From a bacterium (GTDB taxonomy: Bacteria; JAJVIF01; JAGGVT01): a stretch of DNA of 60,348 nt. Both the position numbers and the translations under genes were made by a program. Below, piece by piece: positions 87 through 58,975 of the stretch. The notes beneath the pieces are model-generated. The model was not told where the DNA came from and ran no database searches. It was given only the letters and a program-made list of their open reading frames with translations. Each line of letters opens with the position of its first letter. Position 1 is the first letter of the stretch. Location: assembly GCA_021157815.1 (NCBI GenBank), contig JAGGVT010000059.1, forward strand, positions 1-60,348. The letters are read 5' to 3'.

Positions 87-252
87 AAGGAGACGGACAC
101 CTTTTACATTAACCATGAATACTGGCTTTGTGCTGTGTATAAACGCAAATTGAAAACACCGACTTCGCGAGTCGGTGTTGTTTATTTCGTGCTGTATTTT
201 TCGCCTGTATCCCCTACTTGATTATGTTTACCAAGTTGAAGATAGGCAGGTA
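87..252. repeat. Direct repeat DR-L (~166 bp): duplicated pilC 3' end + downstream hairpin + D-box; partner at 10380-10548
   Basis: By-eye alignment is colinear and roughly 90% identical to 10380-10548, including hairpin caccgacttcgcgagtcggtg (157-177) and the gttgaagataggcaggta end. Confidence 0.85.
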
Positions 253-255: not shown

Positions 256-282
256 AGGGACTGGTCACAAGATAATTCAATC

Positions 283-1287
283 TTAGTTATCCAGATTGAG
301 GGTCATTTGTTCTGGTTTTGGTATCTTTGATGCTGAGGCTTTTCGACTAGCAGACTCAAGGAATTCTGTAAGGCCGCTGTCGAAATCGTTGTTGATTGGA
401 ATTGCGCCCTTTTTAATTAAAGCGGTATTGCCGTCGGGTACAGTTTCACCATCGCGGACAATAACCGGGCAAAGGTTTTTATTAATTGCCTCAACCGCAC
501 CGGACCATGTTCCGCCTGATCCCTTTGCCGATGACACGACCATCGCATGATCAGCCAACGAATAAATATACTTATTGCGCGCCATTGCACCTGCAATAGA
601 AAATCCCGCCCCCGGATGTAATACCGTTATAACAGTAAGGCGGCCATCCACAATCAGTTCCCGTGTGTTCTTTGCTTTAATGAACCGTTGAAGGGAATCA
701 GCCAGGACACCAACCGACTGTCCGCCGTTTTCCACTGCAGCCACCATGGCAGTTTGATCAACACCGCGCGCAGCACCGGAAAGAACAGTGATTCCAAGCT
801 GTGCACACATTACGCCAATACGTTTCGTGAATTCCTGTCCCTGTGAATCGACATCACGTGATCCGACAATCGCAAGACCGCCGTCATTCAGCCTGGATAT
901 ATCACCGGCGCCGAAAATCACTGGAGGTTTTCTATCATCAAGTTTGTCGGCTAATCGCTCAGGATAACTGTCTTCATATTCAGTCAAAACCCAGATTCCC
1001 TGCTGCGACAAATTCTCCAACTCGAGCGCCAGATTTCCACCCAGTTTCAACAGTTCCATTATTCGATAAGCGATTTCAGTTTCAATGTTTAATTCCCGCT
1101 CCAGTTCAGTCTGGTCGCGGAATTCGAGCAGCCCTGACGGCTCTATATGCTTCTCATCCAAACGTTCTTTCAGCATAGACCATTCACGCACTGTAAGTGA
1201 TCGGATCGATTCGCTGCTGCCGGCCATCAAGCGCGAACAGAGCAAAACTACAACCTGTGAATTATGTGATAAAGCATCGATTGCCAT
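283..1287 (-). CDS. DprA/Smf-family (DNA-processing protein A-like, Rossmann fold) protein; possible ShosA-like partner
   Basis: 334-aa ORF with LAIVGSRDVD, VLSGAARGVDQ and GGQSVGVLADSL motifs typical of DprA. Its ATG is 1 nt after the stop of the upstream RecQ-PRTase ORF. Confidence 0.85.
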   Translation of the reverse strand: MAIDALSHNSQVVVLLCSRLMAGSSESIRSLTVREWSMLKERLDEKHIEPSGLLEFRDQTELERELNIETEIAYRIMELLKLGGNLALELENLSQQGIWVLTEYEDSYPERLADKLDDRKPPVIFGAGDISRLNDGGLAIVGSRDVDSQGQEFTKRIGVMCAQLGITVLSGAARGVDQTAMVAAVENGGQSVGVLADSLQRFIKAKNTRELIVDGRLTVITVLHPGAGFSIAGAMARNKYIYSLADHAMVVSSAKGSGGTWSGAVEAINKNLCPVIVRDGETVPDGNTALIKKGAIPINNDFDSGLTEFLESASRKASASKIPKPEQMTLNLDN

Positions 1288-1288
1288 T

Positions 1289-3361
1289 TTAATAATTTCC
1301 CTTTGTCGGCGCTGCGGCTAAGGTGAATGGAAAAACCTCTTCACTGCCAGCGTCCCTTAATATTGTACCAATAACAGTGAGTGTCCATCCAGAATCAACG
1401 ATATCATCAATAAGGAGGACTGGTCCAGGAAGAAGAGTACTGCAGATTTCGAAGCAATTCAAAACGTTCCTGCACTGTTTATAGCTGTTTTGCATTTCTT
1501 TCTGTTCTTTCGTCTCGGATGTCTTTGCAATTACCATTTTAAAAGGAATATTCAATTTCGCGGCTATTCTCCGGGCGAAATCGGGTACCAGATCTCCGCT
1601 GCGATTCGATGGAATGGCGGTAACCCACTGGGGAGCAGGATCAGGGCGCCAGTTTGACAAGATCAATTCCACCGATGCATCAACAAGTTTTTCACTGTAT
1701 TCCTTTAATTTATATTTACACTTGGCAACTTCCATCCCCCAACCTGAATCTCCATAATAACAAAGTGAACAGCCCTTATTGTGCAGATGGCTCGGATTGA
1801 TTTTCTTACGCATCGCAGGAACAACAATTCCCGCAGGCCACATTTTTTTTGGCTCAAATGTGTAATAATCGCCCTTAAGATATTTTATCGCGCGATGTAT
1901 GCTGTCATCAGATGGTTTTTCTGGAAGTAATGCGCCGATACAACCTGCACAATTACCACAAGGGTGTGCGTCAATGTCATCCAGCTCCTTGCATAAAAAC
2001 TCCATTAAACAACCGCTATGGTTCATATACTCGTTCATTTTTTTTAGTTCATGATATCGCTGTTGAGTTACTTTTTCTATCCTTTCAGTATCGTGAGTCC
2101 ACTGCTTTAAAGTTCGACTGTATAAAGGCTTTTCATAAGAGATGAAACCATCTATTAATAAATGCTTTAACGCTTTCTCTATTTGTTTGTACGATGCATT
2201 AACAGATTTTTGTATCTGACCCTGGGTCAACCCCTCATCCGAATTTTCCAGTATGCCAATAATCTGTTTAATATTATCAACCTTTGGAAAGGCGGTGCTG
2301 ATAAAATAATCGATGATTTGGTCATCCTCCTCTCCACTCAGCAATACGCCATAAGCCTTTTCCAACGCGCGTCCGGCACGTCCGACCTGCTGGTAATAAG
2401 CAATAACTGATCCCGGTTTCTGATAGTGTATGACAAATCCAATATCCGGCTTATCGAAACCCATACCCAAAGCGACAGTTGCCACAAGCACTTTCACCCG
2501 GTTGTTTATCAGATCATCTTCAAGGTTTTCCCTGCTCTCTCTCAATCCGGCATGATAGGCTTTTGCATTAATGTTATTTTGCCTTAGGAAACCTGTAACC
2601 CTTTCCGTGTCTCTTTGAGTGAGGCAATAGACAATTCCTGAACCTTCCAGGCCGGGGATTACCTCCGACAACCATGCTAATCGTTCAGCCTGATTTTTCA
2701 TTATTATATTTTGAAGATACAAACTCTTCCGAGCCAGTTTTCCTCGCAGAATAACTACATCCTTTCCAACCTGCTCCTGAATATCGGCGATCACTCGATT
2801 GTTGGCTGTTGCTGTTGTGCCAAGTACAGGAACATTTTGAGTCAGAAGATTTAGTATCCTGACAATTCGACGATAGTCGGGCCTAAAATCGTGCCCCCAG
2901 TCAGAGATACAGTGAGCTTCATCTATGATGAACAGCCCTATTCCACCACTCAGTGATGGGAGAATATTCTGCCTGAACTTCTCGTTGGCAAGCCTCTCAG
3001 GCGAAATAAGCAGTACATCAATTTCATTCCGAATGATTCTTTCTGAGATTAAGTCCCATTCCTCCTTGTTGGAGCTGTCCAGCCTTGCGCATTGAACAAT
3101 ACCGGCTTTCTGCGCCATTTCCACCTGGTTTCTCATCAGTGAAAGGAGTGGGCTGATTAAAAGGGCGGGACCGGAACCTCGTTCGCGAAGCATCCGTGTA
3201 GCAATGAAATATACAATACTTTTACCCCAGCCAGTCCTCTGTACAAGTAATGCTTTCGATCTTTTTTCGACAATTTGGGTAATTGCTTCCAGCTGTCCTG
3301 TGCGAAATTGTGCATCAGTCCCGATCATGCTTTTCAGCATTGTAAGTGCGTCCGTAAACAT
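1289..3361 (-). CDS. RecQ-family DNA helicase fused to a C-terminal phosphoribosyltransferase (ComF/ShosT-like PRTase) domain
   Basis: 690 aa with TGWGKS (Walker A), DEAHCISDWGHDFRPDY, TATA, YYQQVGRAGR, Cys cluster CLMEFLC..CGNCAGC and C-terminal PVLLIDDIVDSGWTLT PRTase signature. GGAGG lies 8 nt before the ATG. Confidence 0.85.
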   Translation of the reverse strand: MFTDALTMLKSMIGTDAQFRTGQLEAITQIVEKRSKALLVQRTGWGKSIVYFIATRMLRERGSGPALLISPLLSLMRNQVEMAQKAGIVQCARLDSSNKEEWDLISERIIRNEIDVLLISPERLANEKFRQNILPSLSGGIGLFIIDEAHCISDWGHDFRPDYRRIVRILNLLTQNVPVLGTTATANNRVIADIQEQVGKDVVILRGKLARKSLYLQNIIMKNQAERLAWLSEVIPGLEGSGIVYCLTQRDTERVTGFLRQNNINAKAYHAGLRESRENLEDDLINNRVKVLVATVALGMGFDKPDIGFVIHYQKPGSVIAYYQQVGRAGRALEKAYGVLLSGEEDDQIIDYFISTAFPKVDNIKQIIGILENSDEGLTQGQIQKSVNASYKQIEKALKHLLIDGFISYEKPLYSRTLKQWTHDTERIEKVTQQRYHELKKMNEYMNHSGCLMEFLCKELDDIDAHPCGNCAGCIGALLPEKPSDDSIHRAIKYLKGDYYTFEPKKMWPAGIVVPAMRKKINPSHLHNKGCSLCYYGDSGWGMEVAKCKYKLKEYSEKLVDASVELILSNWRPDPAPQWVTAIPSNRSGDLVPDFARRIAAKLNIPFKMVIAKTSETKEQKEMQNSYKQCRNVLNCFEICSTLLPGPVLLIDDIVDSGWTLTVIGTILRDAGSEEVFPFTLAAAPTKGNY

Positions 3362-3556
3362 GTTTAACCTCCATTAAACCAGTTTTAGAATTCCACCAAT
3401 TAAAGCTAATTAACGAGGATTATAGCAAAGATATATCGCTAATGCACTACATTTTCGATTAGTTTTTTTCTGTGTGGTTTTCCACCAAACATCCACGCGG
3501 CACAGCGCCATTGGGATCAGGATAAAGGGAACGGACACCTTTTAGATGTGGTATAA

Positions 3557-3866
3557 CACTACTGTCCGGTTAAATTTATACAAAAGCAAAAAAGACATAG
3601 AATGTTCCGCAAAGGTAGTAAAAAGGGGACTGTCCCAACAAAGCGAATAAACTCAGTATAAATGCGGGTTCGCGGTGTAGTTCATTGATAACGTCAGATT
3701 TGAAGCCTTATGTGGACGTACCCCATGATTGGGGAATGCCCCTTTTTACGGATAGAACAATTCGGTATTCACTTACGATTCATGTCTGATAAATACCAAT
3801 AAGCGGGTATATTCTTTATTAATCAGTAATACGGTAATAGGTCTCTAACTTAACCGGACAGTAGTG
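3557..3866 (+). mobile_element. MITE-like element, family A copy 1 (310 bp)
   Basis: 17-bp terminal inverted repeats cactactgtccggttaa / ttaaccggacagtagtg. Colinear with copy 24012-24320. Carries the conserved core at 3618-3749. No ORF. Confidence 0.8.
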
Positions 3867-3867
3867 A

Positions 3868-4005
3868 CATTCAGTTATAGTCGATAATTCCGGGGATGTG
3901 TACGTTTCAGGGTCTTTTAAAGGAACTGTAAATTTCGGTGATGGCAACCCTATTCAGTCTAACGGTGGGGATGACGCTTATCTGTCGAAGTTCAGCATTG
4001 AGTAA
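3868..4005 (+). pseudogene. C-terminal fragment of an SBBP (beta-propeller repeat) protein gene, truncated at the family A element
   Basis: The frame opens right after the element end and reads ..DNSGDVYVSGSFKGTVNFGDGNPIQSNGGDDAYLSKFSIE-stop. This matches the last SBBP unit of ORFs 7224-10259 and 34401-35921. No start codon. Confidence 0.75.
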
Positions 4006-4144
4006 AGAAAGCGACGATTGCCGGGATACTTTGAACTACCGATAAGACTCATTATGTTCTTGATAAAGGTAACTGGCCACAATATCAATATCACAATATC
4101 CGATTCATATGGTTGGGACTATCCCTTTTTTTCATAAAAATATC

Positions 4145-4416: not shown

Positions 4417-5793
4417 ATGCACTACTTAATTCGTGCCGTAAGTGGCATTCTGTTGCTTTTGTTGTTAATCGGATGTTCGGGTATTGGTCAACCAGCCGCA
4501 CCTGATGTGGGTGGTGGATTGCCAGACCAATATGAAGGCGGTGATGAGGAAGGTATTTTTAGATACCTCGCAGCTGTTGAGGACCGCCATGCGTCTTTTC
4601 TGGTATGGCAGGGAGCATACCAGAATGAAGGAAATTCTGCTCTGGAATCAAAGTTAGTTGACTGTATCGCTGCAACATGTTGGGAAGTTCCCGATGGAGA
4701 TGAAGACTACTTTAATTACATTTTAGTCTGTGACAGCAAACGAAGGTGGGACAATCCAAGTTCAAACACGCACACTACTATAATTAGAATTGGCCCACAT
4801 TTTAGACCTTTGATACCTTCAAAAACGGAATATGATATATCCAGTAGTTACTTCATAGAAAATCCCGATGCGTGTACATTGGCAGTCCATAACGACTTCT
4901 TATGGGTTTTTGTTTATGATGCGGATGATCATGAAATTTCCGGTTGGAGATGGGCAATAAGTACTAATCCTTTAACACTCGGTCATCTGGTAAATCCTGT
5001 AAGGTTACCCAATTTTCAAGAGTTTGACTGCGATGATGGCGCCCTTGATTACGTATCAGGAATGGCGTGGGTTCCTTTGGACGAAGATGGTGATGAGTGG
5101 CACCTGATTTGCTGTGATCCGGTTGCTAATCAAATCGTTGTTATTGATGACAATGGCAGTGTTGACACGACAGATGACAACAACTATGGTAATGATCACC
5201 CCATAGACGCCTGTGTTGTCTGGATTGATGACAATGAATGGGATAAATGGATCGTCTATATAGCTGTTCAGGAATCATCGAACAGGAACCAGGACTATCT
5301 ATACAGCTATTACCACAACAGCGTCGGTTATGGATCGCCGGTGCAGGTTACATGTAATACAGGTGGTAATTACTTCCCATTTGTCCTGGGTCTCGATGTT
5401 CGTGCATTTGATGATCTTGATCAGGACGATGATCAATGCATAGCTGTACTGATGCGTGACATTGATGATATGGATGGATACAGGATTAGACAGGGATACT
5501 GCGGACGGACATCCGGTACAATGGATGATTGGATCTCGGAACTTGATACTGATAGCTTTGAAAATCCCAGTTCTTATCCCAACAGTACGATAAATCATGG
5601 TGAATCGTTTGCAATGTGCAAGATGTCAAAGGGAACTGACACAAGCAATTGCTGGGAATGGGGAAATTATTACATTATCGGTGATCGCGATCCGATTCTT
5701 GTTGACGATGATGAAGAAGATTCCGGCGAGAACGCGTTGGATGGCAATAATGTTAAAATATTTAAGAATTTTGATACTATTATTTGTCAATAA
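4417..5793 (+). CDS. Acidic lipoprotein of unknown function (paralog of 5826-7151)
   Basis: SD gggagg upstream of the ATG. Signal peptide with lipobox LLIGC. Colinear motifs shared with the next ORF (YNYILVCD, WHLICCD, WIVYIAV). Confidence 0.75.
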   Translation: MHYLIRAVSGILLLLLLIGCSGIGQPAAPDVGGGLPDQYEGGDEEGIFRYLAAVEDRHASFLVWQGAYQNEGNSALESKLVDCIAATCWEVPDGDEDYFNYILVCDSKRRWDNPSSNTHTTIIRIGPHFRPLIPSKTEYDISSSYFIENPDACTLAVHNDFLWVFVYDADDHEISGWRWAISTNPLTLGHLVNPVRLPNFQEFDCDDGALDYVSGMAWVPLDEDGDEWHLICCDPVANQIVVIDDNGSVDTTDDNNYGNDHPIDACVVWIDDNEWDKWIVYIAVQESSNRNQDYLYSYYHNSVGYGSPVQVTCNTGGNYFPFVLGLDVRAFDDLDQDDDQCIAVLMRDIDDMDGYRIRQGYCGRTSGTMDDWISELDTDSFENPSSYPNSTINHGESFAMCKMSKGTDTSNCWEWGNYYIIGDRDPILVDDDEEDSGENALDGNNVKIFKNFDTIICQ

Positions 5794-5825
5794 TTTTTTT
5801 AATTACCTTACCTAAGGAGGTTAAA

Positions 5826-7151
5826 ATGAGTATATCTAAAATCAGAATATTTTGTTTCTTTTGTATTATCTTACTGTTGGTTGGTTGTTCTAAAGGAAAA
5901 CAGGGACAATCACCAACTTCATCCGAAATAACCCTTGATGATGATATCACATTAATTGAGGAATCAGCAGTGAATAGGGAACTTCAGGAATATAGTGACC
6001 CACCAGAGGAAACCGCACTTCGCTCATTCGGTGAACAGGGGTATACCGGCAATGATTACCACATGCTGGTCGAGTGTGTTGCCACAACTGTGTATGCTGA
6101 GGATGGGGGGTGTGGTGCATATAATTACACACTGGTGTGTGATAAGAATGATAAAATAGACGATACAGAAAGGGTATGTTGTAAAATCTGGAAATGCGGC
6201 TGTGGGCAAAATCCCTCAATGCCAACTCATGAAATTTCTATTCTAACCACTGCATCACCTCCTGTAACTGATCCGGGGGCATGTGAGATAATTGCAATTC
6301 GTGATGAGCTATATGCCTACATTTACGACAGGGCATCTGGATACATAAATGAGTATATATGGGATATTGATCAGGATCCATGTGGCGATCTAACCCTTTC
6401 TTCTGATATACAGTTTTATGATTACGGTGATTTTGAAGATGTAGTTGATATGTGTGTTGTGACGACTAACCGTTATGATACTACCTGGCATCTGCTGGTT
6501 CTCGATAATGGCAGTTCACCTGTTATAAAAGTATATAATCAATCACGTACTTATCTATCGAGTTTAAATATCACAGATTTTGAAGATGTTACCACATACA
6601 AACCTGTTGCACTGTGTGCTGCTAAATGGAATGATGGCACCCCTTGGTGGTTTGTCTATGTTGCCGCAAAACACCCAACTGATGCATCATATGATAGAGT
6701 CCTGTGCTATAGATGGGACGGTTCTGATTATTCAACTAATGCTCGACTGGCGATTAAGCATTCAGGCGAAGGCGATGATTATTTCGATAATATAATCGGT
6801 CTTGATGTAGCAAAAGTTGGTCTTGAATCAGATCGTGGAGATCCAAAAGATAGTCACAAAGAAGGGACAGTGTGTGTTTATATGGCTGATGAGAATTTTA
6901 GGGGTTGGAGAGCAAGACAAGTTCAATTTACTCATTTATTCGAACCTCCGGGGCGGCAATACTATGAATTCATTCAAGACTTTGATGAAACAGAAATGGC
7001 GGATGGTGAAATATGGGTTGAAGACTTTTCGATGGGTTTTAGAAGCTGGCCTGATGATCAAATCGGTTTTCTCTATTTCACTGCGGATAGGAATCCGGAT
7101 ATAGTATCGGGACACGATAACATAAGAATGTATACAAATGATGATACATAG
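5826..7151 (+). CDS. Acidic lipoprotein of unknown function (paralog of 4417-5793)
   Basis: Start moved to ATG 5826, preceded by aaggagg (5814-5820). Lipobox LLVGC. Motifs YNYTLVCD, WHLLVLD, WFVYVAA. Confidence 0.75.
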   Translation: MSISKIRIFCFFCIILLLVGCSKGKQGQSPTSSEITLDDDITLIEESAVNRELQEYSDPPEETALRSFGEQGYTGNDYHMLVECVATTVYAEDGGCGAYNYTLVCDKNDKIDDTERVCCKIWKCGCGQNPSMPTHEISILTTASPPVTDPGACEIIAIRDELYAYIYDRASGYINEYIWDIDQDPCGDLTLSSDIQFYDYGDFEDVVDMCVVTTNRYDTTWHLLVLDNGSSPVIKVYNQSRTYLSSLNITDFEDVTTYKPVALCAAKWNDGTPWWFVYVAAKHPTDASYDRVLCYRWDGSDYSTNARLAIKHSGEGDDYFDNIIGLDVAKVGLESDRGDPKDSHKEGTVCVYMADENFRGWRARQVQFTHLFEPPGRQYYEFIQDFDETEMADGEIWVEDFSMGFRSWPDDQIGFLYFTADRNPDIVSGHDNIRMYTNDDT

Positions 7152-7223: not shown

Positions 7224-10200
7224 TTACAATTTATTTAGAAATGCATCCACACCGCTATTTGAAGTATGATAGTCATGCCAATATGAACTCGGATCAAAAT
7301 CCACCGTACCGGAAAACCAACCGGTAACATAAACGTCATCAAGCTGCGACACAGAAACCTTTTCACCATAGGTAACATCATCATTCTCAGAACCCCATAT
7401 TCTCGTCCCCAAATATGAACCACCCCTGTCAAATTTAACAAGAAAACAGTTCCTATGAAATTCGAACAAAGGATTAGTTGAGAATAAATCAGTGCCAGTA
7501 CCCGGATCGAAATCTACTTCACCTGTAAAATATCCTGTGATAAAGATACTTCCATTTGAACTAATGGAAATACCCTTTCCATAATTTGTCCAATTTCCAC
7601 TAATTCTATGGCCCCAAAGATAATTTCCATTATAATCAAATGTACTTAAAAAAGTTTCAGGATGATCATCATATATTGCCGGTTTGAAATCAACACCAGG
7701 GCCCGGATCAAGATCAACATCACCCCTCAAATGTCCCGTTACGCTGACAAAGCCAAGTTCGCTGGTTTCAATATCTTCGCTTATCGACCCTCCCTCTGAT
7801 CCACCCCATGAATGACCCCATAAATAATTACCAAACTGATCGCACTTTAAAAGGAAAATGGTATAGCCATATTCAGGTGCATGCCAGTCTTCAAAGACAG
7901 GATCAGGGTCCAAATCAATATCCCCGAGAAACCTGCCAGTCGCATAAAAGCAGTTTTCATTATCCACTGTTATTGAATTGCCCTTATCGCAATTATCACT
8001 ACCAATCGTTATGACTCCTAAAAACTCGCCTGATTCACTGAATTTGGAAACGAAAACATCGTCATCCCAAAGTCCTCCATGAGCATAACGAATATCTCCC
8101 TCACCCCATGGATCAAAGTCAGTAAGCCCGCGAAATTTTCCAATTATAAAAACATTGTTATTTGAATCCAACGCGATATCATTGCTTAGGCACCAAACAT
8201 CGCGGATAATATCGTCTCCACCAAAATTATTTACCCAAATAAAATTACCATTTGGATCAAGTTTTAAAACATAAACATCTTCACCCCATATTGGATCTCG
8301 AATTTCCCAACCTGGACCCGGATCGAAATCGCATATACGATTGAAATCACCTGTAATGTAGATGTTGCCAGAATCATCACACTCGACTCCATTAGCTGAA
8401 TCTATATGACCACCACCCCAGGATACCGCCCATTCGAAGTCACCATTTGAATTGAACTTGGATAAAAAAGCGTCGTCCCTGCCATTACTTGAACGAATGG
8501 ACTCTCCGGGACCGGGGTCAAAATCAACATCAGCATTGAAAGTTCCGCAAACGAAAATATTACCATTCGTATCATTCGTGATATTCATACCGCGCTCTCT
8601 ACTTATGCCCCCCCACGTACGCGCCCACCTGTCAGATGAAAGCGGGTAAATGGTGATTGTTTCGGCGCCGATTGTTGATTTCGGAGGATACCCGTCATCG
8701 GTTACGCGCATTGCCACCTGTTGTGTAATCTGGCCGAATTCATGATTTTCAAAAGGAGGCGATGTTACCGGGGCGCCTGTCGTGTTCGACGCATCCGGTG
8801 TAAAGTAGTGTCCGTAGTAAGCGAAATCGTATTCGTACAAGACGATGCTTCCATCGGGATCGTCGGTTGCGGGTCCGGGCCACATCTGGATCGGCATCCC
8901 CGAATCTATAAAATAGTCCGATACGTCAAGGTCGGCGAAAGGAGGATCGTTGCTCCAAACTTCCGCAGTAAAAATTTGGTAAGTGGCGAATTCGGGCATG
9001 GAGTAGAAATCGAGCGTGACGCCATCGGGGACATCGATAATCGAATCGGTCTGGCCATCGAATGGCGCTTGCGGTGGTACGCGACTGTCCAGGACCTTAA
9101 CGTAACCCTGATAATATCCGCCCGGTAGAAAATTCTCGTTCGCGATCGGCACTGTGAAAATCAGCGGATCATCCGGCATTCCTGTGTGTGAGCCTGTCGG
9201 CGCCGTTACGATTTGCAGCTCGTTTGTCATCATGTTGATTTCAACACCGACACCGACAATATCCGATTGAGAGTAAATATCGGATGGGTCATCGAGGTTC
9301 GGATCGACTGTCGCGCCGATCTGCCAGTCGTAAACTTCCACAATGACATCGCGGGTTTCAGTCTCATCATAAGGAGGCCATCCCTGAGCGGGAGGAATGA
9401 CATTCACTTTCCACGGCGCTTTGCGGTTGAACTCGGGATTGAAGTAGGTTGGAGCCAGACGGTTTTCGAATGTCGTGCTGGCCCCGTAACCGAACGTGAG
9501 ATAGAGTTCGAACCGTCCACCAGCGAACCAGGCGTCGAAAGTATGATCTTTAGTGCCCATTTCGAACCTGTTGAATGTTGCGATGCCTGTGTCGCTGTTG
9601 TCAACCACAAGGAAATACGGGCAGGCGAATTCGTTGCCGATGACCTCGGAAAGTTCACGAGTGTAGCCATCGGGATATCCGCACGATTCAGAATAGATAT
9701 CGATATCGATCAGATGCGGCTCCGTGGGTTCGTCCTCAAGCGGAAATACAACCAGCGCGAGATCGAAGATATCCAAATCGAGCCTGTTCTTTGGTGATGG
9801 CGGTTCCGACAGATTCCCTTTCTCAAATGGATGGCTTGCATAAAATGTCGCCTTGATGTAGGGATCGTCATAATCGAGATTTTTCAGCTTAAGGCAATCC
9901 TGGCACGGCGTGATCGTGAAAAACGATGTCCCGCTGACAATAAAACTCTCGCCGATCATGGATGTACGTTTTGGAATGAGCTCACCTGATTTCGTATCTG
10001 GATTTATTACGAGGTCATAAGCGCCGAGGATGCCTGTTGCGGTGAAAGTATCGCGAAAAGATTCCAGCGCGATGATAGGGAGTGAGTCCGTCAGGTCAGT
10101 TTGATTGATGCCGGATATGATCGGCGATTTAGAGGACGAGCATCCGGTGAGAATTATAAGAAACAACAAACCGAAAACTATATCCCTTAATCCTCTCCTC

Positions 10201-10259
10201 AATAGGCAATAGAATCCCATACCCCTGGAATGATGGAGTGAGTGATTAACCAAGTTCAT
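7224..10259 (-). CDS. Giant lipoprotein: shared N-terminal ~330-aa module, central beta-sandwich region, ~8 SBBP beta-propeller repeat units
   Basis: 1011 aa. gggagga SD before the ATG. Lipobox ILTGC. Repeated GxxFxTGxFxGxxDFDPGxG...DAFLxK units. N-terminal module is colinear with ORFs 14087-16639 and 40853-43771. Confidence 0.8.
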   Translation of the reverse strand: MNLVNHSLHHSRGMGFYCLLRRGLRDIVFGLLFLIILTGCSSSKSPIISGINQTDLTDSLPIIALESFRDTFTATGILGAYDLVINPDTKSGELIPKRTSMIGESFIVSGTSFFTITPCQDCLKLKNLDYDDPYIKATFYASHPFEKGNLSEPPSPKNRLDLDIFDLALVVFPLEDEPTEPHLIDIDIYSESCGYPDGYTRELSEVIGNEFACPYFLVVDNSDTGIATFNRFEMGTKDHTFDAWFAGGRFELYLTFGYGASTTFENRLAPTYFNPEFNRKAPWKVNVIPPAQGWPPYDETETRDVIVEVYDWQIGATVDPNLDDPSDIYSQSDIVGVGVEINMMTNELQIVTAPTGSHTGMPDDPLIFTVPIANENFLPGGYYQGYVKVLDSRVPPQAPFDGQTDSIIDVPDGVTLDFYSMPEFATYQIFTAEVWSNDPPFADLDVSDYFIDSGMPIQMWPGPATDDPDGSIVLYEYDFAYYGHYFTPDASNTTGAPVTSPPFENHEFGQITQQVAMRVTDDGYPPKSTIGAETITIYPLSSDRWARTWGGISRERGMNITNDTNGNIFVCGTFNADVDFDPGPGESIRSSNGRDDAFLSKFNSNGDFEWAVSWGGGHIDSANGVECDDSGNIYITGDFNRICDFDPGPGWEIRDPIWGEDVYVLKLDPNGNFIWVNNFGGDDIIRDVWCLSNDIALDSNNNVFIIGKFRGLTDFDPWGEGDIRYAHGGLWDDDVFVSKFSESGEFLGVITIGSDNCDKGNSITVDNENCFYATGRFLGDIDLDPDPVFEDWHAPEYGYTIFLLKCDQFGNYLWGHSWGGSEGGSISEDIETSELGFVSVTGHLRGDVDLDPGPGVDFKPAIYDDHPETFLSTFDYNGNYLWGHRISGNWTNYGKGISISSNGSIFITGYFTGEVDFDPGTGTDLFSTNPLFEFHRNCFLVKFDRGGSYLGTRIWGSENDDVTYGEKVSVSQLDDVYVTGWFSGTVDFDPSSYWHDYHTSNSGVDAFLNKL

Positions 10260-10379: not shown

Positions 10380-10548
10380 AAAGGGGACAGAGACCTTTTA
10401 GATTAACCATGAATACTGGCTTTGGGATGTGTATAAACGCAAAATAAAAACACCGGCTTCGCGAGTCGGTGTTGTTATTTTTCGTGCTGTATTTTTCCGC
10501 CTGTATCCCCTACTTGATGATGTTTACCAGGTTGAAGATAGGCAGGTA
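10380..10548. repeat. Direct repeat DR-R (~169 bp), overlapping the genuine pilC 3' end and its terminator
   Basis: Partner of 87-252, see that entry. Confidence 0.85.
10441..10471 (-). terminator. Rho-independent terminator of pilC
   Basis: Hairpin caccggcttcgcgagtcggtg (10451-10471). An A-run on the plus strand gives a U-run after the stem on the minus strand. Confidence 0.7.
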
Positions 10549-11733
10549 GAGGCTGATTACGATTGTACCGATGATTGCACCGATGACGATAATCAGCAGC
10601 GGCTCGATAAGGCTTGCAAGGCCGCGGATTGTGGAGTCGATTTCGACATCGTAGAAGTCCGACAGTTTCTCGAGCATCTCCTCGAGATTTCCCGCCTCCT
10701 CGCCGACGGATATCAGGTTGGTGACCATTGGGGGGAACATTTTCGTTCGTTTCATGGGAGCGGAAATTGTTTCACCCTCGCGAATTCTCTCACGTGTGTA
10801 ATCGATTGCGTTCGCGATTACGACATTATGCGAGGTGTCGCGGGTAACCTCAAGCGCCTCAATAAGAGGCACACCGGATTTCTGAAGCGTTCCAAGCGTG
10901 CGGCAAAATCGCGTAATCGCTACTTTTCTGGAAAGCGGGCCGAAGATGGGTATGTATAGAACCGGAAGGTCGAAAACCTTGTGTCCCCATTTGGTGCCGC
11001 GGAATTTCCAAAATGCGACAAACACAATCGCTGGAATAACCGTGTAGTAATACCAGTGATACCTGAATTCCTCCGAGATTTTAAGCATCTTTTGAGTTAG
11101 CTCGGGAAGTTCAGCCTCGCCGCCGGAGAAGTCCTTGTAGAATTCAGCGAACTGCGGAATGATGTACATGAACATGAACAGGATAATTACAATTGAGATT
11201 ATTAAGACCAGTGACGGATAAACCATCGCGGATTTAATCTTGGTTCTCAGATCAAGCTCGTTTTCATAGAACGATGCGACTCGTTCGAGGATGCCATCCA
11301 GAACACCACCGATCTCGCCGGCGTGAACCATAGCGACAAAGAAATTTGAAAACGCGCTGGGGTGTTTTTTCATCGCGCGAGCGAGAGGAATACCGGACTG
11401 GACATCCATTCTGACAACGTGAAGGATTTTCTGGTATTTACGGTTTGCTGTCTGTTCCTCCACTGTATCAAGTGTCTCAGCAAGTGTCAGGCCAGCGTTA
11501 ATCAGAAGCGCCATCTGGCGTGATGAAACTGCCAGCAGTTTCAATCCGACCTTTGTGAATTTGTCAATGATATCCCACGGATTCCATGCGAAAGCCCGTC
11601 TTTCGGATATCTTGACTACATAAAAGCCTTCCTTGGTTAGGGTTTGCACAACCGAGTGCTGCGTATCAGCCTGAACGGTGTTTTTAATCATGTTGCCAGA
11701 CTGGTCGCGGGCGATATATACGTAGGTTTTCAT
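10510..11733 (-). CDS. pilC: Type IV pilus / type II secretion inner-membrane platform protein (GspF/PilC family)
   Basis: 407 aa with two GspF-type repeats (LLINAGLTL..L, ..SVGEEAGNLEEML) and three hydrophobic segments. Confidence 0.85.
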   Translation of the reverse strand: MKTYVYIARDQSGNMIKNTVQADTQHSVVQTLTKEGFYVVKISERRAFAWNPWDIIDKFTKVGLKLLAVSSRQMALLINAGLTLAETLDTVEEQTANRKYQKILHVVRMDVQSGIPLARAMKKHPSAFSNFFVAMVHAGEIGGVLDGILERVASFYENELDLRTKIKSAMVYPSLVLIISIVIILFMFMYIIPQFAEFYKDFSGGEAELPELTQKMLKISEEFRYHWYYYTVIPAIVFVAFWKFRGTKWGHKVFDLPVLYIPIFGPLSRKVAITRFCRTLGTLQKSGVPLIEALEVTRDTSHNVVIANAIDYTRERIREGETISAPMKRTKMFPPMVTNLISVGEEAGNLEEMLEKLSDFYDVEIDSTIRGLASLIEPLLIIVIGAIIGTIVISLYLPIFNLVNIIK

Positions 11734-13859: not shown

Positions 13860-13927
13860 GGATGGACACCTGTTTCGTAATGCCGATAAACTCTGGCTTT
13901 CAAAAAGGTGTCCGTCCCCTTTATTTC
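13860..13927. repeat. Family D palindromic element
   Basis: ggatggacacctg...gccgataaactctggc...aaaaaggtgtccgtcccctttatttc; ggacacct/aggtgtcc arms. Confidence 0.65.
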
Positions 13928-40852: not shown

Positions 40853-43771
40853 CTAATATATTACGATCGCTATCTCATCAATACGAGCGGTTGTGCCGGT
40901 TGGTTCGTCGAGGTGGAGAAATTGGATTGCTATGTATGAGTCTAACGGGTCGCCGTCGAGGTTTAAATCGCCGCCCCAGAGGTAAGTATGCGGGTCGGAG
41001 GAGAATCGCCATGAGTTGTTTCCCGTGGGGACATCATCGAAAAATGTTCGGATATCCTCGCTGTCTAAATTGTAGGCGGTGAAATCTCCGGTTGATTCGA
41101 CTGATGACCATTCCAGTTCCGATGGTGTAACCCAGCCGTACGTTGGCTGTGTTGAGCAGGTGCCGAAAAACATTTCATCCTGAAAACCATCCTCGACATC
41201 GAAATAGATTGAACATTCGAGGTGGCGGACATCCGAATCGGGGACATCCCAGGTTTGTTTCGTAATGCCAATCCAGCGATTTGTGTAGCCGTCATAGTCG
41301 GGGAGTCGCAGGTGTTTGTCACCGTGCGCTGTTTCGGTTGATGTTTCCACATAAAAGCGGTGATCGTAGTTGGCGACATTTCGCTCGCAGTTACCGAACC
41401 AGCCCTCGCCGTCGTTGTCCTCATCGGTTAGCGTTTCAAATCCGTTGATTGCGATAAACGCCGGCTCGCAGGTGTCATATTCGGATGCGGGATTATCAAT
41501 TTCCGAACGCGCGCGAATTTCATAAGTCAATCCCTCGATAAAATGATTCGATGGCAGATGCTCTGCGGGAACGGTGAATTCGAGTTCCGTTGTGGCATCG
41601 ACAAACTGCATGTCGTTTTGTAATCCGTCGGTGGGGTCGATGTCGTAATAGATTGCGTATTGCACCGCAGATTGTTCAGGACCCCAGACCAGAGTCCATG
41701 GGCCTGATTCATCGAATGGGTAACCGTAATCGTTGGGGATGTCGCGGTTTACGGTGAGTTTAAGATTGCCGAATATTCCAAGGCAGTCCTCGATTATCAC
41801 ATTACAGGTAGCGAAAATCGTGTTGTTAGGCGGATTGCAGACATCGACCGCTCGAAACGCGACTGTGTATGTGTATGGGTCAGTGGATGGGCAATTCGGA
41901 TTTGTGAAAACGACATCCTCGAAAATGCCGTCCGTGTTGAAAGCATCGACAATGAAAAGACCGTCATAATCCCAGTCAGCCTGGTAAGATACGATTGGAT
42001 TGCCGCCGTTGTCGCTGGTTGCTGTGACAGTGAAATCAACCGACTGCCCGTTATAAATGCCTGTTACGGGGCATGATGGCGCAACGATTTCTCCCGTGAT
42101 TGGTCCGCAGCAGGTATCTACATTAATATCGCAGGTCGCGAACACGGTTACATTCGGCGGATTGCAGCTGTCGGTCGCGCGGAATGCGACTGTGTATGTT
42201 ACGGGAATATTTTCAGGGCAGTTCGGATTATCGAAACTAATATTCTCGAACTCGCCGTTGTAATTGGCGTCGTCAACATCGAAAGTTTCGCCGTCGTAAT
42301 CCCAGTCAGCCTCGTACCACGTTATCGGGTCGCCGTGATTCGCGCTGGATGCTGTTACGAGAAAATCGTACGGGTTTCCGCTTACTATCCCATCCGCTGG
42401 ACATGATGGTTGCAGCACCGAGCCTGTGATTAATCCACAGCAGGAATCTACAACTATTTCACAGGTCGCGAAAATCTCCACGTTCGGCGGGTCGTTGGCG
42501 TCGGTCGCGCGAAATGCCACAAAGTAGAAAACAGGTATTGGATCAGGGCAATTCGGATTTGCATAAGGGCCGCAACCGTTGAAAATGCCGTCCGTGTTTT
42601 CAGCATCGACATCAAATGTTTCGCCATCGTAGTCCATGTCGATTTCATAAAGGACAATCGGTTCCCCTCCGGGCAGGTTGGATGCTGTTACAGTGAAGTC
42701 CTGTGTTTCGCCATCGACAAATCCGGTTACCGGACATTCAGGTGACAAGACCTCACCCGTTATTTCACCGAAACCGGTTGATGATTTGACTACGATTGAG
42801 AATTCTCCGTAAAGTGTTGTTGTGCCTGAACCCTCTGACGTTGCCAGGATGTAGGCGATATAATTCCCCGCTGTCGCGCCGGTGTTGTTCACTAGAGTAT
42901 AAGTCCATGATGGCGCGGTTGCTTCAGTAAATGAAACGAGAATTTCGTCTGTAATTGATGGGCAGTACATCTGGACTGAATTGACATCCTGCTGCCAGTC
43001 GTAAACATCGACGCTGAGTGTACATTCTGAACCAACCGTTTCGAACAGGTCTTTGCTCTGCTTGAAATTTTTTATCGCAAACGGCTCATCGCAGTTTGAT
43101 GGATATGAGGCATCAATCGCAAATTCAATATCAGTAAACCCATCTGGGAAAAACAATTGGAATCTCTGGGTGTGCTCGCTTAATCCCTCAAAGATACGAT
43201 TTACACCGGTGTTTGAATACGCCTTAAACGGGTTAACGTCCGCGCCGCCTGGAATGTCATACAGCCCTGTCCAGTTATCCGCGTTTTTCAATCGACTGCC
43301 AAGATTATCGGTAAAGACAATAATGCGGATATCGTAGGCGTCGAAATCGTATGTGTTTGTGATTGCCGTATCGACATCGAGAATCGCGGTGAGCGGGTCA
43401 AAATTTATCACTGTATAAACAGGCGCGGGAATATAGGGGGTTACATTCCAGTGAAGCTGAATTTCACGGTTGGGGATTGTGGTTAATTCCAGCGTTTCGG
43501 GATTGAATTCCAATGTCCACGCGCCAAGCATGACATGGCTGGTTTGGTTATTCTCCCCGGAAACAATCGGAAGCGTTTCATCGGGAACAGGTTCGTTTGG
43601 TGTAACAGAAGTCGCGCTGTTAGAGGAACATCCGACTGAAATAACCGCCGATATAAAAATAAGAAAAAGGCAAATCCATGGGCACTTCAGGACATGCTGT
43701 GGGTTGTTTGTATTCCGCAAAAAAGGGGACAGTCCACAACAGGCTTCAAATCTGATATTTTCAATAGACAT
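40853..43771 (-). CDS. Giant lipoprotein of the same N-terminal-module family, with three tandem Cys-rich PKD-like repeats
   Basis: 972 aa. Lipobox ISVGC after a 29-aa leader encoded inside a repeat core. Three ~105-aa repeats (..CPVTG...DWDYDG..F.V.....G.F....F.NPNCP.....Y.VAFRA.D..NPPN...FATC) map to about 41790-42780. Confidence 0.8.
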   Translation of the reverse strand: MSIENIRFEACCGLSPFLRNTNNPQHVLKCPWICLFLIFISAVISVGCSSNSATSVTPNEPVPDETLPIVSGENNQTSHVMLGAWTLEFNPETLELTTIPNREIQLHWNVTPYIPAPVYTVINFDPLTAILDVDTAITNTYDFDAYDIRIIVFTDNLGSRLKNADNWTGLYDIPGGADVNPFKAYSNTGVNRIFEGLSEHTQRFQLFFPDGFTDIEFAIDASYPSNCDEPFAIKNFKQSKDLFETVGSECTLSVDVYDWQQDVNSVQMYCPSITDEILVSFTEATAPSWTYTLVNNTGATAGNYIAYILATSEGSGTTTLYGEFSIVVKSSTGFGEITGEVLSPECPVTGFVDGETQDFTVTASNLPGGEPIVLYEIDMDYDGETFDVDAENTDGIFNGCGPYANPNCPDPIPVFYFVAFRATDANDPPNVEIFATCEIVVDSCCGLITGSVLQPSCPADGIVSGNPYDFLVTASSANHGDPITWYEADWDYDGETFDVDDANYNGEFENISFDNPNCPENIPVTYTVAFRATDSCNPPNVTVFATCDINVDTCCGPITGEIVAPSCPVTGIYNGQSVDFTVTATSDNGGNPIVSYQADWDYDGLFIVDAFNTDGIFEDVVFTNPNCPSTDPYTYTVAFRAVDVCNPPNNTIFATCNVIIEDCLGIFGNLKLTVNRDIPNDYGYPFDESGPWTLVWGPEQSAVQYAIYYDIDPTDGLQNDMQFVDATTELEFTVPAEHLPSNHFIEGLTYEIRARSEIDNPASEYDTCEPAFIAINGFETLTDEDNDGEGWFGNCERNVANYDHRFYVETSTETAHGDKHLRLPDYDGYTNRWIGITKQTWDVPDSDVRHLECSIYFDVEDGFQDEMFFGTCSTQPTYGWVTPSELEWSSVESTGDFTAYNLDSEDIRTFFDDVPTGNNSWRFSSDPHTYLWGGDLNLDGDPLDSYIAIQFLHLDEPTGTTARIDEIAIVIY

Positions 43772-43830
43772 TATTCATTCTCCCAGTGTTTATCGCATTT
43801 ATAAACGTTATTGGGACAGTCCCCTTTTTT
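43719..43830 (-). repeat. Diverged copy of the conserved MITE core, overlapping the 5' end and start codon of ORF 40853-43771
   Basis: aaaaaaggggacagtccaca.caggcttcaaatctga...ttgggacagtcccctttttt aligns with the cores at 3618-3749 and 58820-58937. Confidence 0.65.
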
Positions 43831-50643: not shown

Positions 50644-51233
50644 GTGCCCAAAAAGATTCAGGCCATATGGGATGTGTTTTTAAGCCATTCACACGAGGAC
50701 GCGGAGAGTGTTGAATTTGTCGCAAAGCGCCTTGAGGATGATGGCAAGTTTCAGGTATGGCTGGACAAATGGGTGCTTATCCCCGGTAAAAGCTGGCAGC
50801 GGATATCATCAAAGGCCTAAATGAAACCAATTGCTGTGCGGTGTTTATAGGAGGGAAAACACCTGATGGCTGGTTCCGCATGGAAATTGAGCGCACACTG
50901 GACCGTCAGGCACTGGAAGATGGTTTCCGTGTTTTAGCAGTTCTTCTCCCGGGCGCTGATGAAAAATACGTTGATAAATTTCTTGGCCTAAGGTCATGGG
51001 TTGATTTCAAAGGCGGTCTTGACAATAAAAGGGAATTTCATCGCCTTTACAGCGCGATAAGAGATGTGGCTCCGGGTAGAGGGCCTGCTAAAAAAACCAT
51101 AACAAGTGAGCAGATGAATACTGTTAAAGAGGATCTGAGCAAGATTAAACAATTGCTCGATGATCGATTAATAGCGAAAGAAATCGCATATGAGTATCAA
51201 CGCAAACTACTGGATAGCTTAGTCTCGGTTTGA
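50644..51233 (+). pseudogene. TIR-domain protein with a -1 frame break near 50800
   Basis: GTG 50644 gives ..IWDVFLSHSHEDAESVEFVAKRLEDDGKFQVWLDKWVLIPGKSWQ, then TAA at 50818. The TIR continues in the -1 frame (DIIKGLNETNCCAVFIGGKTPDGWFRMEIERTL..) into the tracked ORF 50841-51233. One extra g in cagcgg would restore the frame. Confidence 0.75.
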
Positions 51234-58782: not shown

Positions 58783-58975
58783 GGCGCTTCAATAAACTGT
58801 GTGGGTTATTTGTCCCACCGTAAAAAAAGGGGACAGTCCACATGAGGCTTCTAGTCAAGTGTTATCAATTAACTACGCTGCAAACCCGCATTTATACTAT
58901 ATTTATTCACTTGCTTGGGACAGTCCCCTTTTTTTACTCAATCTAAACTCAACCCACACGATTTATTGAAGACCC
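58783..58975 (-). mobile_element. MITE-like element, family B copy 2 (193 bp)
   Basis: TIRs ggcgcttcaataaactgtgtgggtt / aacccacacgatttattgaagaccc. Core at 58820-58937, inverted relative to copy 1. Confidence 0.8.

Follow-up and report, generated by a model that had tools for sequence, protein, structure and literature searches.

We have analyzed a stretch of 60,348 nucleotides (the window from here on) and found that two adjacent genes on its reverse strand, at positions 1289-3361 and 283-1287, very probably make up an ordinary two-gene PsyrTA (RqlHI) toxin-antitoxin and anti-phage module. The PADLOC model of PsyrT (PDLC03928) matched the 690-aa product of the first gene with an E-value of 4.6e-283 over residues 4-684 (profile positions 7-684 of 689), and the PsyrA model (PDLC03927) matched the 334-aa product of the second with an E-value of 3.9e-101 over residues 6-322 (profile positions 3-318 of 398). 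The pair belongs to this family, has its catalytic motifs intact, follows its operon layout and is kept together amid varying neighbours. An earlier note on this DNA had described the same two ORFs, and the motifs that it quoted could all be located in both proteins; its domain calls were also correct, as supported by Pfam. Its statement that no RecQ::PRTase plus DprA system had been characterised does not hold, as PsyrTA/RqlHI has exactly this architecture and the dedicated PADLOC models matched at full length. The system is an already known one, present here as a textbook copy, and is neither a new helicase-armed relative of ShosTA nor a fused competence module.

The published record of PsyrTA/RqlHI begins with a biochemical description as a clade of helicases in 2012 (PMC3378886). 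Its description as a toxin-antitoxin pair followed in 2013 and 2015, the work on RqlHI in the latter year reporting toxin-antitoxin behaviour and a toxicity that requires the PRTase domain (PMC4670107). By 2022 PsyrTA was listed together with ShosTA among the experimentally supported anti-phage systems. The PsyrT/RqlH homologues are 3'-5' DNA helicases, and their C-terminal PRTase domain, when unrestrained, is genotoxic through its PRPP-binding pocket, the consequences being an SOS response, filamentous growth and a loss of viability. Some of the restraint on this domain also comes from the helicase domain, and in E. coli RqlI binds RqlH directly and neutralises its toxicity (PMC4670107). A homologous pair moved into a test host protected it from phages. 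One native-host study expressed a PsyrTA in E. coli K-12, which lacks the system, and could detect no protection from the phages under test.

The toxin gene psyrT

The gene psyrT (rqlH) occupies positions 1289-3361 of the reverse strand, stop codon included, and its product, with 690 aa, is exactly as long as E. coli RqlH. The order of its parts (RecQ-like core, linker, four-cysteine zinc module and PRTase) is that of psyrTA of P. syringae and RqlH-RqlI of E. coli F11. In the same way, RqlH of M. smegmatis, a 3'-5' helicase of 691 aa, has an ATPase at residues 1-346, a zinc domain at 435-499 and a ComF-like PRTase C-terminal domain (PMC3378886). The residues that have been mutated in E. coli RqlH are kept here, with K47 corresponding to K49, D147 to D148 and DIVD at 653-656 to DIVD663. 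PsyrT also retains every residue that was invariant among 18 diverse homologues, among them K47, D147, the arginine finger, the four cysteines, Q620/K621, D652/D653, D656 and S657. The identity to a copy on an E. coli plasmid is only about 48%, and the host here is an uncultured bacterium, different from those of the model systems.

The SF2 RecQ-like ATPase/helicase core covers approximately residues 18-347 (positions 2321-3310). It contains TGWGKS at 43-48 (with K47 as the Walker A lysine), DEAH at 147-150, TATA at 183-186 and QQVGRAGR, with the arginine finger, at 324-331, and was matched by the Pfam models DEAD (1e-23) and Helicase_C (3.7e-16). When the whole protein was searched against the PDB sequences, RecQ-type and other SF2 helicases were found, all within residues 5-357, the solved RecQ structures matching residues 5-355. 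The NCBIfam family model recQ_fam exceeded its cut-off of 219.8 with 264.6 bits. The RecQ equivalog TIGR01389 reached 303 bits against a cut-off of 640 over residues 8-361 only, and no HRDC domain appeared among the Pfam matches, in which PsyrT differs from canonical RecQ. Judged by these profiles the helicase part is of the RecQ family, but it is not RecQ proper. Another protein that combines a RecQ-family motor with a zinc-binding module, as canonical RecQ does, is DpdF of the Dpd system. PsyrT gave partial matches to the DpdF model because this core is shared, but with 132 bits it stayed far from the cut-off of 550, and no Dpd model was listed in the scans of the other ORFs of the window.

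Residues 417-474 (positions 1940-2113) form a four-cysteine zinc-binding module. The Pfam match to RecQ_Zn_bind in this part was weak (21.6 bits, below the cut-off of 25). The four cysteines C451, C468, C471 and C474, which lie in the motifs CLMEFLC (451-457) and CGNCAGC (468-474), are all present and at least 90% conserved (alignment A1).

The C-terminal domain, residues 480-690 (positions 1292-1924), is a type I PRTase-fold domain in which the acidic PRPP loop LLIDDIVDSGWT, with the pattern DD..D, is found at 649-660. Pfam Pribosyltran matched PsyrT with 28.9 bits, above its cut-off of 26.3, and a profile of the domain compared with the PDB retrieved generic PRTases only, through the PRPP loop. 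The PRTase fold is confirmed at the level of a predicted structure: an AlphaFold2 model of the domain (pLDDT 76) had Foldseek matches of much the same level (TM ~0.4) with APRT, PurF and H. pylori ComF, and no ShosT structure among the top 50 matches. Scanned alone, the domain scored 219.6 bits with PADLOC PsyrT (E 1.8e-65), 19.4 bits with ShosT (E 1.9e-4) and 23.6 bits with the ComF model TIGR00201 (E 4.1e-5), whose cut-off is 233.55. Going by these profiles, it appears roughly equidistant from ShosT and ComF. The earlier note had proposed to place the domain between ShosT and ComFC by a phylogeny; the comparison was approximated here by profile scores and not by a tree, and in this form it gives the competence reading no support.

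The antitoxin gene psyrA and the junction of the pair

The DprA-like antitoxin gene psyrA (rqlI) lies at positions 283-1287 of the reverse strand, stop codon included. Its product contains IVGSRD at residues 140-145 and SGAARGVD at 170-177, and Pfam DNA_processg_A matched residues 94-298 (positions 394-1008) with an E-value of 1.2e-34. The dprA equivalog TIGR00732 gave 85.1 bits against a cut-off of 191. With the ShosA model of PADLOC the E-value was 1.2e-27, so that by profile comparison the protein appears related to ShosA, yet its E-value with the PsyrA model places it better in the PsyrA family. In contrast to E. coli RqlI, it has no C-terminal HTH, a part that is dispensable in the E. coli protein. 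Actually, this short form is the commoner one, found in about 46 of 72 homologues.

As in PsyrTA/RqlHI, the toxin gene comes first and the stop and start codons nearly touch. The junction (positions 1285-1291, reverse strand) reads TAA-A-ATG, with a single nucleotide, 1288, between stop and start, an arrangement that makes translational coupling likely. The psyrA gene was found directly downstream of psyrT in 78 of 80 homologous loci, in genomes from many phyla, and the nearest psyrA start lay between -20 and +30 nt relative to the psyrT stop in 75 of 77, the commonest spacing being a 4-nt overlap (34/77). Such close spacing is characteristic of the family and not due to chance.

Upstream of psyrT (positions 3368-3427, reverse strand) we noticed by eye a putative extended -10, TGcTATAAT (3427 to 3419), and a Shine-Dalgarno sequence, GGAGG (3372 to 3368), which precedes the ATG by 6 nt. 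In two relatives (L001 and L007) the same stretch is conserved; it may contain the expression signals of psyrT. A sigma-70 promoter scan gave matches no commoner than in shuffled sequence, and the conserved extended -10 was missed by this consensus scan because its -35 is poor. At the other end of the pair, 3' of psyrA, a terminator scan detected a terminator-like hairpin (positions 155-179, reverse strand) that is a copy of the pilC terminator and lies inside a duplicated block at 87-252.

Distribution of the family and surroundings of the pair

Fusions that join a RecQ-like helicase to a PRTase are found in more than 8000 database proteins, and among the best 120 almost every one has about 690 aa. 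No recurrent neighbour gene family was found around the homologous loci. Scattered among the neighbours were genes of BREX (PglZ, BrxB, BrxL) and Druantia (DruA), type I restriction-modification and AbiEii-like genes and transposases. An E. coli IncF plasmid carries the pair within a type I restriction-modification operon, flanked by hsdS and hsdR, and on a Nostoc plasmid parAB lies next to it. A search of a phage collection found no full-length homologue.

Within the window, the promoter region and both genes form a cassette of ~3.2 kb (268-3527, reverse strand) that is common to relatives; similarity ends at both edges and the flanks differ. The cassette is 91.7% identical in nucleotides to that of L007 over 268-3527 and 86.2% to that of L001 over 295-3506. 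The pair is kept at 86-92% nucleotide identity in three related genomes with different flanks, a pattern that resembles vertical retention more than a recent transfer. The earlier note had described the direct repeats, the MITE-like truncation and the pilC remnant around the pair, and this description proved accurate. The block at 87-252 (reverse strand), found by a repeat search, is a second, diverged copy of the 3' end of pilC together with the terminator region that follows it. It shares 91.7% identity over 168 nt (BLAST) with its partner at 10381-10548, its pilC homology begins at about 245, and the pilC locus of a relative (L089) matches both copies. On the opposite side of the cassette there is a MITE-like element of 310 nt (3557-3866, without assigned strand; inverted repeats I3 and I4). 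It is bounded by terminal inverted repeats of 20 nt and contains two REP-like palindromes. Across the window this REP-like motif is enriched, and short palindromic repeats are abundant in the stretch that holds the PsyrTA pair. Assemblies from the same metagenome break at the MITE-like element, the contigs L004-L006 diverging at 3867, 3717 and 3668. It cuts off a gene with SBBP repeats, of which a 3' remnant of 45 codons is left on the forward strand (3868-4005, translation HSVIVDNSGDVYVSGSFKGTVNFGDGNPIQSNGGDDAYLSKFSIE*); positions 3882-4018 are conserved in L007.

Two further proposals about this region found no support. The 10-kb segment bracketed by the repeats was considered as an integrase-mediated island, but there are no tRNA genes in the window and no integrase or transposase family in the gene listing of the segment; its three large ORFs matched no defence model. 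The sequence TCCCTTTAT(A)CCT, considered as a recombination core at both ends of the cassette, is found just three times in the window, overlaps with the family of REP-like repeats and was too weak a candidate. As for a defence island, PADLOC on ten other ORFs of the window was empty save for a TIR-TPR protein 48 kb away. A second dprA or recQ was not found in the 60-kb window.

Alternative readings and probable role of the pair

ShosTA also joins a PRTase-domain toxin to a DprA-like antitoxin, its effects being damage to DNA, filamentation and abortive infection. The kinship with this system that the earlier note had pointed out is real. The note had gone further and preferred a new, uncharacterised ShosTA variant armed with a helicase. 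In favour of this count the scores of PsyrA with the ShosA model and of the PRTase domain with ShosT, and the discussion of both systems together in the literature, but we give the reading next to no credence. The PsyrT and PsyrA models match better and at full length, and this architecture has had a name and a literature since 2012-2015 (PMC3378886, PMC4670107). Besides, ShosT is a stand-alone protein without helicase, whereas the PRTase here is fused to one, and ShosA neutralises ShosT without binding it, through RecA and DNA, while RqlI binds RqlH directly (PMC4670107).

The pair could also be read as a fused competence module, in which a ComFA-like helicase, a ComFC-like PRTase and DprA would work with a type IV pilus in DNA uptake. 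The parallel is already in print, as ComFA/ComFC/DprA likewise bring together an SF2 helicase with a PRTase-like domain and a protein of the DprA fold (PMC5512222), and the weak ComF similarity of the C-terminal domain, with H. pylori ComF among its structural matches, goes in the same direction. We hold it to be extremely unlikely, since the helicase here is RecQ-like and not ComFA-like and the ComF and DprA equivalog scores are far below their cut-offs. What is suggestive at first sight is the position of the genes: the pilC 3' remnant abuts psyrA, intact pilC is 9 kb away, and in L001 the pair abuts pilT and pilB. However, the adjacency in the window derives from the duplication of the pilC end, the pilus genes of L001 are convergent with the pair and do not share its operon, and L007, a 93% relative, has no pilus gene in 18 kb, the pair being located there next to genes that flank pilC in the window. 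The proximity is limited to the window and one close relative. Family-wide synteny with pilus genes, which the earlier note had named as a point in favour of competence, is absent, with pilB, pilT or pilC within 10 kb in 0 of 80 homologous loci and no competence or pilus family standing out among the neighbours. This survey covered PilB, PilT, PilC and recurrent neighbour families. That the pilus proximity in this lineage reflects a functional tie and not an inherited position is very improbable in our estimation. If it did, the pair might survey single-stranded DNA or pilus-dependent phages entering via the pilus, which would connect the DprA fold of PsyrA with DNA uptake.

A housekeeping function would make RqlH a repair or recombination helicase replacing RecQ, with the DprA-like partner loading or handing over single-stranded DNA and no conflict system involved. 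Several observations are compatible with this: M. smegmatis, whose genus has no classical RecQ, possesses a genuine 3'-5' helicase in RqlH (PMC3378886), the mycobacterial and most Gram-positive genes lack the DprA-like partner that is present here (PMC4670107), ShosA, a relative of PsyrA, acts through RecA and single-stranded DNA, and three related genomes have kept the pair, which lies outside any defence island in the window. Against it stand the PRTase-dependent toxicity that the partner neutralises (PMC4670107), the occurrence of the pair with unrelated neighbours, on plasmids and also within a restriction-modification operon, the place of PsyrTA among the experimentally supported anti-phage systems, and the RecQ equivalog score of 303 bits against 640. 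We consider this function unlikely. The earlier note leaned towards a conflict system and away from a competence module, and this preference is supported.

On the PsyrTA reading, the most likely role of the pair would be that of a PRTase-dependent genotoxic toxin restrained by a DprA-like partner and used in abortive phage defence. Points that weigh against this reading are the native-host study in which no protection was seen, the lack of a defence island around the pair in the window and its retention in the three related genomes. Both genes would be transcribed from one promoter, the extended -10 at 3427 to 3419, and translational coupling at TAA-A-ATG would deliver PsyrT and PsyrA in fixed proportion. 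Phage infection might then upset the balance between PsyrA and PsyrT or disturb the sensing of DNA by the helicase, either of which would free the PRTase activity and block DNA replication in the infected cell.

The correct labels for the two genes are PsyrT/RqlH and PsyrA/RqlI instead of RecQ and DprA, names to be avoided because they misleadingly imply functions in repair and competence. The significance of the locus goes little beyond this annotation. Its local context is a small, clear case of a defence cassette that stays intact while its repeat-rich flanks are reshuffled.

The gene pair and its family

We have analyzed two adjacent minus-strand genes, psyrT (1289-3361, 690 aa in the ORF list) and psyrA (283-1287, 334 aa), whose junction reads TAA-A-ATG, with 1 nt between stop and start. 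The ORF list, the motif positions and the junction sequence bear out both reading frames, all the motifs and the spacing described in an earlier note. PsyrT has the helicase motifs TGWGKS (residues 43-48), DEAH (147-150), TATA (183-186) and QQVGRAGR (324-331), a cysteine cluster made of CLMEFLC (451-457) and CGNCAGC (468-474), and the PRPP loop LLIDDIVDSGWT at 649-660. PsyrA has IVGSRD (140-145) and SGAARGVD (170-177). Pfam scans returned the domains that the note had named, namely DEAD, Helicase_C, Pribosyltran (28.9 bits, cut-off 26.3) and a weak RecQ_Zn_bind in PsyrT, and DNA_processg_A (1.2e-34) in PsyrA. When PsyrT was aligned with 17 homologues (44-89% identity) all the invariant positions were retained, including K47, D147-H150, the TTATAN motif, the arginine finger and the four cysteines and, in the C-domain, Q620/K621, D652/D653, D656, S657, W659 and T660.

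The PADLOC check proposed in the note matched the first protein to the PsyrT model (E 4.6e-283, residues 4-684, profile positions 7-684 of 689) and the second to PsyrA (3.9e-101), the runner-up ShosA being far weaker (1.2e-27). The C-terminal 213 residues of PsyrT alone gave 1.8e-65 with the PsyrT model versus 1.9e-4 with ShosT, and 4.1e-5 with the NCBIfam ComF model (23.6 bits, cut-off 233). The helicase scored 264.6 bits with the NCBIfam RecQ family (cut-off 219.8). Because of these PADLOC and NCBIfam model scores we assign the pair, at the sequence level, to the PsyrTA (RqlHI) family, of which it is an ordinary member; ShosTA and ComF/DprA are kin to it only through shared domains.

Other NCBIfam models were tried and rejected: RecQ proper (303, cut-off 640) and DpdF (132, cut-off 550) for the helicase, and DprA proper (85, cut-off 191) for PsyrA. 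PDB searches with the whole protein and with a profile of the C-domain found no family member among solved structures. When modelled with AlphaFold2 (pLDDT 76), the C-domain took the predicted type I PRTase fold, which confirms it; the model is about as close to APRT as to PurF and H. pylori ComF (TM ~0.4), and ShosT was absent from the top 50 structural matches. The predicted structure brings this domain nearer to neither ShosT nor ComF.

The PsyrA of the window is the short form, without the C-terminal HTH that is dispensable in E. coli RqlI. Across 72 homologous loci (L007-L086) the length is bimodal, with about 46 short proteins of 320-345 aa and about 24 of 400-450 aa, which presumably carry the HTH; one homologue (L071) reaches 742 aa.

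There is previous work on this family. In M. smegmatis, Ordonez, Unciuleac and Shuman (2012, PMC3378886) defined RqlH, a 691-aa protein in which residues 1-346 form a RecQ-like ATPase and residues 435-499 a zinc domain with four cysteines, the C-domain being a ComF-like PRTase; they showed its 3'-5' helicase activity. When E. coli RqlH (690 aa) is expressed without RqlI, the SOS response is induced and the cells filament and lose viability (Russell and Mulvey, 2015, PMC4670107). Its toxicity requires the PRTase domain and is abolished by D663A and DIVD663EVME; the helicase-dead K49A or D148A proteins are still harmful. The same authors found that RqlI binds RqlH and shares its operon, the order being invariably rqlH then rqlI with ends overlapping or nearly touching. 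Millman et al. (2022 preprint) grouped PsyrTA, "also called RqlHI", with ShosTA among anti-phage toxin-antitoxin pairs, and a passage of that preprint credits the toxin-antitoxin finding to Sberro et al. 2013. The likeness to ComFA/ComFC/DprA had also been published (PMC5512222). Given this literature of 2012, 2015 and 2022, the statement in the note that no RecQ::PRTase + DprA system had been characterised was wrong. Its reading as a conflict system akin to ShosTA stood; the novelty and the idea of an added helicase did not, PsyrTA being a known family.

Homologues and their neighbourhoods

A search of 5.8 billion proteins gave at least 8000 PsyrT matches at E <= 1e-20. Nearly all of the best 120 have ~690 aa, and, two close relatives aside, these 120 share 53-59% identity with the PsyrT of the window. 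The neighbourhood survey, which the note had suggested, covered 80 loci scanned with one genome per species, from Chloroflexota, Bacillota, Thermodesulfobacteriota, Verrucomicrobiota, Zixibacteria, Myxococcota and others. A PsyrA homologue lies directly downstream on the same strand in 78, and in the remaining 2 the contig ends where psyrA would start. In 75 of 77 loci its nearest start falls between -20 and +30 nt from the stop codon of psyrT, most commonly at -4 (34 loci), -1 (11) or 0 (6). PilB, PilT or PilC homologues were found within 10 kb in none of the 80. Among 221 neighbouring ORFs from 29 loci, no Pfam family recurred in more than three loci; PglZ, BrxB, BrxL, DruA, N6_Mtase, type I restriction-modification and an AbiEii-like ATPase appeared as scattered defence neighbours, and transposases and defence genes were interspersed with housekeeping genes. 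Such a distribution is what marks a self-contained conflict module of two genes.

Full-length copies were found on twelve plasmids and in no phage record. On a Nostoc plasmid the pair adjoins parAB. On an E. coli IncF plasmid (NZ_OX030731.1, 2640-12719) the order is hsdM, hsdS, psyrT, psyrA, hsdR, with the pair nested in the type I restriction-modification operon between hsdS and hsdR. The PrrC anticodon nuclease occupies the same position in the prr locus, an analogy that suggests a back-up role tied to restriction-modification for the plasmid pair.

The cassette in a rearranging region

The conserved PsyrTA block spans 3.2 kb, with 91.7% identity over 268-3527 to one related genome (L007) and 86.2% over 295-3506 to another (L001). 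The flanks are unrelated among the three genomes, and the cassette (86-92%) and the chromosomal sequence that flanks it (85-93%) have diverged to a similar degree. The 3' end of pilC with its terminator is present twice: the original is at 10381-10548, and a diverged copy, ~92% identical to it, lies downstream of psyrA (87-252, hairpin at 155-179). These direct repeats of ~168 nt bracket a 10-kb segment with an SBBP-repeat protein (7224-10259, minus strand, 1011 aa), two plus-strand lipoprotein-like ORFs (4417-5793 and 5784-7151, each ~455 aa with a lipoprotein-type signal peptide, and both unmatched in Pfam and PADLOC), a MITE-like element and PsyrTA. PADLOC found no other defence gene between the repeats, and the contig gene listing showed no integrase family in the segment; no tRNA gene was seen. 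The segment may, for instance, have arisen when DNA of a diverged relative was inserted by a single (Campbell-type) crossover.

The MITE-like element (3557-3866, 310 nt, upstream of psyrT) cuts off an SBBP-repeat gene, leaving 45 C-terminal codons (3868-4005, plus strand) that begin right after its right arm and are 89% conserved in L007. Metagenome contigs break near this element. The REP-like palindrome AAAGGGGACNGTCCC has 12 sites in the window versus 0.28 expected, often as inverted pairs ~90 nt apart; they include 3622-3636, 43722-43827, 58826-58931 and 13904-13922, the last coinciding with a synteny breakpoint against L007.

In the 60-kb window pilC (10510-11733, minus strand) stands alone, with no PilB or PilT homologue. 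In L001 the pair adjoins pilT and pilB in convergent orientation, on a contig that has these two genes together without pilC. The neighbours of the pair in L007 are sequences found next to pilC in the window, and the pilC locus of that organism has a different downstream gene. Since the flanks are reshuffled, repeats are dense and cassette and flanks have diverged alike, we infer that the pair owes its place beside pilus genes to inheritance within a rearranging region full of repeats and not to a functional link.

Proposed function

The pair most likely forms a co-transcribed, translationally coupled toxin-antitoxin unit. Its family membership, intact motifs and module behaviour are observed directly; toxicity, binding and phage protection are most likely shared with the homologues from which we take them. 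The main rival, that PsyrT is a repair helicase and PsyrA its DprA-like loader, appears improbable. We keep it because Gram-positive bacteria commonly have a solo RqlH gene (PMC4670107), the window copy appears vertically retained and the pair lies outside any defence island. At 48 kb from PsyrTA, a 600-aa protein with an N-terminal TIR domain and long TPR repeats (51230-53032, plus strand), weakly matched by the bSEFIR, SAVED-TIR and ThsB-like models of PADLOC, may act on its own in defence or signalling.

As a toxin-antitoxin unit, the pair would work through the PRPP-binding PRTase pocket of PsyrT, which would be genotoxic when free and which PsyrA would bind and silence, the helicase domain helping with the restraint and presumably sensing DNA. 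On phage infection the toxin would be released and would halt DNA replication in the infected cell.
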